Origin: Candidatus Heimdallarchaeota archaeon
GTDB taxonomy: Archaea; Asgardarchaeota; Heimdallarchaeia; Heimdallarchaeales; Heimdallarchaeaceae
NCBI GenBank assembly: GCA_021399345.1
Contig: JAAFKI010000038.1
Location: forward strand, 1-18,704
Direction: 5' to 3'
DNA length: 18,704 bases
Below, piece by piece: positions 14,331 through 14,387 of the stretch. The position numbers and the translations under genes were made by a program. The notes beneath the pieces are model-generated. The model was not told the DNA's origin. It made no database searches and saw nothing but the letters and a program-made list of their open reading frames with translations. Numbering within the stretch: the first letter of the stretch is position 1; the number at the start of each line of letters is the position of its first letter.

Positions 14331-14387
14331 AAGAAACGGTTCATCCCCTACAATAGATGATGTAAGGTCACCTAGTCTTCTTTTTTT
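14331..14387 (-). promoter_or_regulatory. Putative -1 frameshift signal: A_AAA_AAA slippery heptamer (14387-14381), 8-nt spacer and kink-turn hairpin (core 14372-14338)
   Basis: mRNA reads CG AAAAAAA GAAGACUA GGU GA CCUUACA UCAUCUAU UGUAGGG GAU GA ACC. The -1 frame is continuous with the vWA ORF. Confidence 0.6.

Follow-up and report, generated by a model that had tools for sequence, protein, structure and literature searches.

A conserved k-turn-like hairpin at a putative -1 frameshift site between the MoxR and vWA genes of Heimdallarchaeia

The junction between the genes for a MoxR-type AAA+ ATPase and a vWA protein was found to carry a conserved, covarying hairpin downstream of an in-phase slippery heptamer in one family of Heimdallarchaeia. 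At every defined sequence position the element agrees with the kink-turn (k-turn), and a kinked geometry with sheared G.A pairs and cross-strand A-minor contacts is predicted for it. The hairpin is likely to be the 3' stimulator of a conserved -1 frameshift, as judged from the anatomy of the orthologous junctions. Stabilization of the k-turn by L7Ae would be the best single explanation of the element, and we give that reading an even chance of being correct.

The MoxR-vWA junction in Heimdallarchaeia

Both genes lie on the minus strand of the window, as we call the whole 18,704-nucleotide stretch of DNA that was analyzed (contig JAAFKI010000038.1 of assembly GCA_021399345.1, from a Candidatus Heimdallarchaeota archaeon), and the features of their junction are collected in Table 1. 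The 3' end of the MoxR ORF reads CGA AAA AAA GAA GAC TAG, and the vWA frame opens just 5' of the A-run, at 14395. Scanning of the vWA frame of the window from 14395 to 14306 revealed no ATG, GTG, or TTG before the ATG at 14306, downstream of which the vWA domain was recognized by Pfam (VWA_2, 1.5e-11). An identical A7 run, with zero indels, was present in three independent DNA assemblies from different studies. Coverage by the one sequencing run guessed to be RNA was confined to 14452-14500, outside the hairpin. The neighboring genes of the window were assigned by Pfam to an intein-bearing MCM, a Hel308-type helicase, and a CDP-archaeol synthase, a set that points to an archaeon; the intein lies inside the MCM gene at 9259-11847 of the minus strand, with the Pfam Intein_splicing match at 467-596.

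Table 1. Features of the MoxR-vWA junction, in coordinates of the window
Feature	Coordinates	Strand	Basis or remark
MoxR-type AAA+ ATPase ORF, zero frame, 297 aa	14372..15265	-	Pfam AAA_5 (3.5e-20) and AAA_3; ORF list
Slippery heptamer A_AAA_AAA, in X_XXY_YYZ phase of the MoxR frame	14381..14387	-	Sequence
MoxR zero-frame stop UAG	14372..14374	-	The NC stem of the window starts with its G
vWA frame, -1 relative to MoxR, open from 14395	13350..14395	-	ORF list, frame scan, Pfam
C helix hairpin, 7 bp (14367-61 with 14352-46, one G.U), 8-nt loop 14360-53	14346..14367	-	MFE fold
Three-nucleotide bulge L1-L3, GAU	14343..14345	-	Sequence and fold
G2n A1n strand of the tandem G.A pairs (predicted sheared), within Asp codon GAC	14368..14369	-	No variant among the aligned sequences
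G1b A2b of the tandem G.A pairs, within Glu codon	14341..14342	-	Invariant in alignment
NC helix, non-bulged strand: 6n A, 5n G, 4n G, 3n U	14370..14373	-	Alignment and tree
NC helix, bulged strand: 3b A, 4b C, 5b C, 6b G	14337..14340	-	Alignment and tree
Outer helix, UCUU arm, pairing with AAGA 14376-14379	14331..14334	-	Fold; 48% of cells paired family-wide

The search for orthologous junctions took in 61 relatives and then 83 genomes of the class; the family of the window within Heimdallarchaeia is designated f1. A vWA orthologue was found in 26 of the 30 f1 genomes, each with an open frame of 345-352 aa, and in all orthologues this frame was ~30 codons longer than the ATG-started ORF. Together with 4 metagenome contigs, the f1 genomes provided 31 distinct junctions, with vWA identities of 39-100%. 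All 31 had A7 followed by G, with the heptamer in the X_XXY_YYZ phase of the MoxR frame, a zero-frame stop 1-2 codons after it, and GG.GA and RAUGARCC motifs flanking the hairpin. The base of the NC helix lay 7-8 nt downstream of the heptamer, and the C-stem alone would start 13 nt from it.

The codon aligned with the ATG at 14306 was TTA, TTG, GTT, or ATA in several f1 genomes and ATG in most members of the genus. From the hairpin to this codon, the positional entropy was 0.89, 0.60, and 1.24 for codon positions 1, 2, and 3, respectively, indicating that the stretch is coding in the vWA frame. No conserved vWA start codon or SD was found near the element in the f1 orthologues. Three hallmarks of -1 PRF were found at the junction: a slippery heptamer in zero-frame X_XXY_YYZ phase, a structure 5-9 nt downstream, and a -1 ORF lacking a conserved start. 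When 400 genomes of the phylum were scanned for the pattern, only scattered matches were returned outside f1, none of them with the hairpin.

Examination of a sister family, f5, revealed the same gene pair in 20 of 22 genomes (loci L029, L030, and L058-L075, genus g14), with an A_AAA_AAN heptamer in phase and a stop nearby. The f5 element is a plain GC hairpin, GCGGGAY-N4-RUCCCGC, which begins 7 nt after the heptamer, is almost invariant, and lacks k-turn features. Its stability of -9.5 kcal/mol compares with a median of -10.2 kcal/mol for the whole f1 element. Runs of A9-A13 replace A6-A7 in several f5 genomes, and the hairpin is missing from two of them (L066 and L069).

In the neighboring family Kariarchaeaceae, MoxR and vWA form one ORF of 633-638 aa with both AAA_5 and vWA domains (locus L028:1486-3402, minus strand, and proteins P0001-P0004), and this naturally fused relative serves as an internal control for the conserved frameshift signal. 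The linker of the four fused orthologues reads ...PPKKRFIPKE[P/S/V/I]DF..., in which PPKKRF, with an A6 run, stands as a remnant at the position of the f1 slippery run.

The heptamer, stop, -1 ORF, and hairpin found in both f1 and f5, the fused relatives, and the intact A7 in the DNA together make a -1 frameshift well supported. A fraction of the ribosomes decoding A_AAA_AAA at the end of MoxR would slip back one base and read into the vWA frame, giving a MoxR-vWA fusion of ~640 aa, and ribosomes that do not slip would terminate 2 codons later and yield free MoxR. The original prediction had placed the hairpin at the position of a frameshift stimulator. That placement was upheld by a conserved, covarying element with its NC base at a near-constant distance from the in-phase heptamer, and the frameshift itself is read from comparative sequence data.

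Fold and covariation of the hairpin

The hairpin at 14331-14379 of the minus strand had been folded by hand, and RNAfold returned exactly the same structure as both MFE and centroid, at -13.4 kcal/mol. In the window, the tandem pairs are G14342.A14368 and A14341.G14369, and the NC helix contains A14340-U14370, C14339-G14371, and C14338-G14372, beyond which lies a 3x3 loop. The fold had z = -1.87, with 4 of 200 shuffles as stable, so that the single sequence is modest evidence only. A 111-nt context showed no stability excess over shuffles (z = 0.09), and only the local element matters accordingly.

Comparison across genomes lifts the hairpin well above chance. RNAalifold applied to 27 junctions gave a 3-bp NC stem, a 2x5 internal loop with GA opposite RAUGA, and the C-stem, and the single-sequence MFE had the same architecture in 27 of 29 orthologues. 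Cells of the C-stem were 86-87% paired, versus 25-55% when the partners were slid by 1-3 columns, and double-sided changes were seen at all 7 C-stem pairs of the f1 alignment. Origins of these changes were mapped onto a tree of the remainder of the vWA gene. Covariation across orthologous junctions, which had been proposed as the first check on the hairpin, was borne out by 13 independent compensatory origins of double-changed Watson-Crick states, 11 of them in the C-stem and 2 at 6b:6n. The latter pair covaries between U-A (9) and A-U (5) and is otherwise A.G. The closing pair of the C-stem switches from C-G to U-A via two synonymous third positions.

Two other parts of the fold were considered. 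The AAGA/UCUU outer helix and the 3x3 loop, which the original prediction had included, are present in the window and its close kin but are not conserved (Table 1). The competing UCAUCU/GGAUGA hairpin was rejected: 63% of its cells were paired, which was no better than slid controls, and with 0 compensatory changes it shows no covariation.

A covariance model of the 42-nt element gave one strong match per genome, at 44-61 bits and only at the junction; the next best match anywhere in the 83 genomes scored 27 bits. Matches below 28 bits were set aside as apparent chance matches or unrelated hairpins; examples are those in G025:C48 and in G082:C39, the latter antisense to an ORF. The best of the non-junction matches, at 27.5 bits, is L088:1198-1261 on the minus strand (G082:C39:3997-4060), antisense to a 323-aa ORF; it reads GGUGA-UCCUACA...UGUAGGA-AAU-GA-ACC with a long loop and may be a chance hairpin or a second k-turn-like one.

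The C-hairpin alone had a median stability of -5.8 kcal/mol among f1 members, the weakest being -0.5 kcal/mol. In some members the C-stem is down to 4 bp or to this lowest energy, with the core intact.

The k-turn core and competing explanations

The fit to the k-turn consensus that had been noted position by position in the window, with a purine at L1 and U at L3, held across the family. All 31 junctions had a bulge of exactly 3 nt, which read GAU in 26 of them and AAU in the other 5, and this length was kept despite 3- and 6-nt loop indels. Conservation of the GA/GAUGA internal loop, on which the original prediction depended, was likewise found: G1b, A2b, G2n, and A1n were invariant in the aligned junctions, with RAU as the bulge. 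The motifs GG.GA and AUGA.CC were invariant in the f1 junctions, as were the NC pairs 4b:4n and 5b:5n, both C-G. The 3b:3n pair was A-U in 22 of 31, G.U in 7 of 31, and A.C and G.G once each, with G at 3n in one junction only. The -1b:-1n pair was G:C in 26 of 31 and C:G in none; G:C at this place is rare among natural k-turns.

Two known kinds of k-turn RNA were considered and rejected. Box C/D sRNAs have terminal C (RUGAUGA) and D (CUGA) boxes as well as internal C'/D' boxes, with guides of ~12 nt. The element has a single k-turn, with a D-like GUGA 5' and a C-like GGAUGA 3' of a closed 7-bp stem, and has no second box pair at sRNA spacing. Identity with the autoregulatory k-turn of an l7ae leader was rejected as well, with the element located at the MoxR-vWA junction and the l7ae leader carrying a separate element. 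A scan of the window against Rfam at gathering thresholds returned no family, and a tRNA search of the window returned none.

The core also encodes Gly-Asp...Asp/Asn-Glu-Pro in the vWA frame. Its four G/A bases and the NC GG/CC are first and second codon positions of Gly-Asp and Glu-Pro, that is, non-synonymous positions, so that their invariance equals invariance of a peptide motif and is, alone, no proof of selection at the RNA level. Changes at third positions were counted on the tree. The third base of the Asp/Asn codon, which supplies the U at L3, had 0 changes compared to 1-8 in controls (21 same-residue columns); that of the Gly codon, which supplies the U at 3n, had 2 compared to 4-12; that of the stem Val codon GUA had 0 compared to 5-11; and that of the Asp codon at -1n had 2 compared to 1-8. 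The third bases of the Glu codon at 3b (3 changes) and of the Pro codon at 6b (5 changes) were within the control range, and either A or G at 3b can pair with U. The -1n Asp codon was GAC in 26 of 31 junctions, GAC being otherwise the minority codon. The synonymous sites required by the k-turn model (L3, 3n, and -1n) are frozen, and those that it does not require (3b and 6b) are free. The sole synonymous site that is specific to a k-turn, as opposed to a helix-loop-helix of any kind, is L3, where 0 changes against ~4 expected (roughly p = 0.02) are modest evidence.

The residues encoded by the C-stem vary radically (Gly/Arg/Glu) while pairing is kept. AlphaFold2, used with 21 aligned sequences, predicted post-shift residues 1-21 to be disordered (pLDDT ~40, below 50), the first helix of the post-shift protein starting at residue 24. 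The G-D...[DN]-E-P motif was absent from the four fused orthologues and from f5; a Glu-Pro match of one fused orthologue in the alignment is coincidental, the other fused proteins having DS, EV, or EI. RNA and protein constraint on the core are not fully separable. The frozen synonymous sites, the variable stem residues, the disordered peptide, and the absence of the motif from the fused orthologues and f5 argue that RNA drives conservation of the core, and protein constraint is an unlikely cause.

These observations bear directly on the strongest alternative, a plain stem-loop stimulator, perhaps with a lower helix, that acts without protein and owes its k-turn look to the encoded peptide or to ancestry. 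A simple hairpin stands at the same spacing in f5 with an energy similar to the f1 median, which indicates that a k-turn is not required for frameshifting in the MoxR-vWA pair. The position of the core bases at non-synonymous codon sites also fits a plain stem-loop, and sample labels indicate organisms of cold sediments, where weak helices gain stability relative to 37 C. However, a 2x5 loop three pairs from the base of a stimulator is a feature that selection would normally remove, yet here it is conserved, and both the length of the bulge and the registers of the GA pairs have been kept through loop indels. The freezing of L3 and 3n, the predicted disorder of the peptide, the lack of its motif in fused orthologues, and the persistence of the core in members with the shortest or weakest C-stems also speak against a plain stem-loop, which we consider unlikely.

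An improbable alternative is that the element is a genuine L7Ae k-turn whose role lies outside frameshifting, in mRNA stability or processing, in vWA repression, or in termination and re-initiation. In the part of the Sulfolobus study (PMC5539422) that is related in PMC6298567, L7Ae binds 32 mRNAs and represses its own translation via a leader k-turn, which speaks for such a role. The original prediction had pointed to control of MoxR termination or vWA re-initiation because the stem overlaps the UAG. This overlap is real in the window, but among orthologues the stop moves relative to the stem while the spacing from the heptamer is fixed. The supposed vWA ATG is not conserved, nor is there a conserved vWA start codon or SD near the element, and the vWA frame is coding upstream of the ATG and right through the element. 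Control of termination or re-initiation was accordingly not supported.

Transcriptional slippage on A7 is more improbable again. Here the polymerase would add one A to make an in-frame fusion mRNA, with the hairpin having another role or none in recoding. A-runs of at least 7 can slip, and some f5 genomes have A9-A13 at the same place, but polymerase slippage needs no phase, and the heptamer is always X_XXY_YYZ phased in f1 and f5. The structured element is kept at the canonical 7-8 nt ribosomal spacing, and the run is exactly A7 then G throughout the f1 junctions. That there is no recoding at all, MoxR and vWA being ordinary adjacent genes and the hairpin an intergenic structure or chance, could appeal to the ATG in the window and most genus members but is scarcely tenable with a frame open ~30 codons upstream in every orthologue, an ATG not conserved as a start codon, a fused orthologue in existence, and heptamer, phase, and spacer conserved in two families.

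L7Ae and relation to known systems

In the preferred reading, that of an L7Ae-stabilized k-turn stimulator, a short hairpin would be built on a standard k-turn consisting of an NC helix, tandem G.A/A.G pairs, a 3-nt RAU bulge, and a looped C helix. A Watson-Crick 3b:3n pair and G:C at -1b:-1n each block ion-induced folding of k-turns (Huang, Ashraf, and Lilley; PMC6298567), and all k-turns tested fold upon binding of L7Ae (PMC6298567). The point made at the outset, that k-turns with a Watson-Crick 3b:3n pair tend to need protein, agrees with these folding rules. Given the weak hairpin and a 3b:3n, -1b:-1n class that does not fold with ions alone, the element would act as a roadblock only with an L7Ae-family protein. 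L7Ae, or another member of its family, might clamp the k-turn at the mRNA entry channel of a ribosome paused on A_AAA_AAA and so turn it into an effective roadblock.

In that case the efficiency of frameshifting could track the amount of free L7Ae, whose level would report the status of ribosome and RNP assembly; the AAA_5 ATPase is of the dynein/midasin type. We put forward only tentatively, at less than even odds, that this constitutes a cellular protein-gated recoding switch in which free L7Ae would set the output of free MoxR versus MoxR-vWA (MIDAS) fusion via the k-turn.

The genome encodes an L7Ae equivalog (TIGR03677, 154.7 bits). Upstream of the L7Ae gene (L076:1450-1809), the leader at L076:1404-1441 (G000 contig C123) has a conserved hairpin, UACCU-AAU-GA-A-GGCAC...GUGCC-C-GA-GGUGA, which overlaps the SD-like GGUGA. 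Covariation of its inner helix is seen in other families within the order (GGUAAUU/AAUUACC and GAUCUA/UAGAUC), and in the MFE fold a simple outer helix of 5 bp competes with the k-turn register. This Asgard hairpin resembles the autoregulatory k-turn published for L7Ae. The L7Ae gene and the conserved leader hairpin suggest that L7Ae sensing of mRNA k-turns probably operates in the Heimdall lineage, and dependence of the MoxR-vWA stimulator on L7Ae is plausible.

Archaeal l7ae leader k-turns are hairpins of low stability with a GAU bulge (PMC6298567). The f1 element shares with Kt-7, box C/D k-turns, and l7ae leaders (Daume 2017; PMC6298567) the GAU/AAU bulge, the tandem G:A/A:G pairs, and location in an mRNA. 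A terminal loop closes its C helix, an arrangement shared with three of the six l7ae leaders that have been published (PMC6298567), and, like the leader k-turns, the element has 3b:3n and -1b:-1n of a class for which folding requires a bound protein. Unlike them, it lies in coding sequence 7-8 nt past a heptamer rather than over a ribosome-binding site, and its proposed output is recoding rather than repression of initiation.

The fucA1 gene of Saccharolobus solfataricus undergoes a -1 frameshift on A_AAA_AAT (PMC1616953) and was described in a 2021 review as the only -1 PRF reported in Archaea (PMC8211752). The MoxR-vWA junction resembles fucA1 (PMC1616953) in its A-rich heptamer, in the proposed joining of two ORFs into one functional protein, and in its archaeal host; it differs in being known by comparative evidence only, in its Asgard lineage and gene family, and in a stimulator with a k-turn core. 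Against this single reported archaeal case (PMC8211752), the MoxR-vWA signal is conserved across dozens of Heimdallarchaeia genomes in two families. If correct, the frameshift would be the second case of -1 PRF in Archaea and far better conserved than the first. Our literature searches returned no natural k-turn or L7Ae frameshift stimulator, no MoxR frameshift, and no Asgard or Heimdall frameshift. If the k-turn reading holds, the element would also be the first natural k-turn stimulator of frameshifting.

Protein-directed -1 PRF is known from viruses, in which cardiovirus 2A acts with a stem-loop (PMC5472766) and arterivirus nsp1beta with PCBP (PMC4937337). As there, the 3' RNA element is weak and would stall the ribosome only with protein bound, and efficiency would be adjustable. 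The suggestion of a protein requirement of the cardiovirus 2A type comes here from the weak stems and the published folding rules only. The MoxR-vWA pair differs from the viral systems in being a cellular gene, and the candidate protein is a universal ribosomal and RNP protein whose binding is predicted. If true, this would be the first -1 PRF controlled in trans by a protein in a cellular gene, outside viruses.

As a rule, a frameshift is stimulated by a stable hairpin or a pseudoknot. A protein-dependent k-turn stimulator would tie the efficiency of recoding to the concentration of a universal RNP protein, a linkage that to our knowledge has so far been described only from a few RNA viruses and engineered L7Ae switches. 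The 42-nt element and its known partner protein make the proposal directly testable without culturing the organism, and for synthetic biology the element would be a natural model on which to build L7Ae-controlled frameshift devices.

Recoding and k-turn-like RNA also meet in eukaryotic SECIS elements, which lie in the 3' UTR, recode UGA, and are bound by SBP2 through its L7Ae-family domain. Both SECIS and the f1 element have a k-turn-like AUGA/GA core for an L7Ae-family protein, in f1 a candidate one, that drives, or in f1 would drive, recoding. Unlike SECIS, whose loop lies beyond the G.A pairs, the f1 element is in-frame just 3' of the slip site and carries its loop on the C helix.

At the level of the products, dnaX frameshifts at a fixed ratio, the frameshift product being the shorter one. 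The MoxR-vWA pair would likewise make a short AAA+ product and a longer product from one mRNA, but here the frameshift product would be the longer. The fusion of AAA+, linker, and vWA is the layout of ChlD/BchD (Mg-chelatase ChlI/ChlD) and of midasin-type proteins. The MoxR protein gave a weak BchD-ChlD NCBIfam match; the likeness to ChlD/BchD lies in the joining of AAA+ to vWA via a linker and implies no chelatase function for MoxR-vWA. The N-terminal part of the vWA protein (window 13350-14306, minus strand), which had no Pfam or NCBIfam match, is predicted to form an all-helical domain of ~110-140 aa over post-shift residues 24-135, with pLDDT of 82-92.
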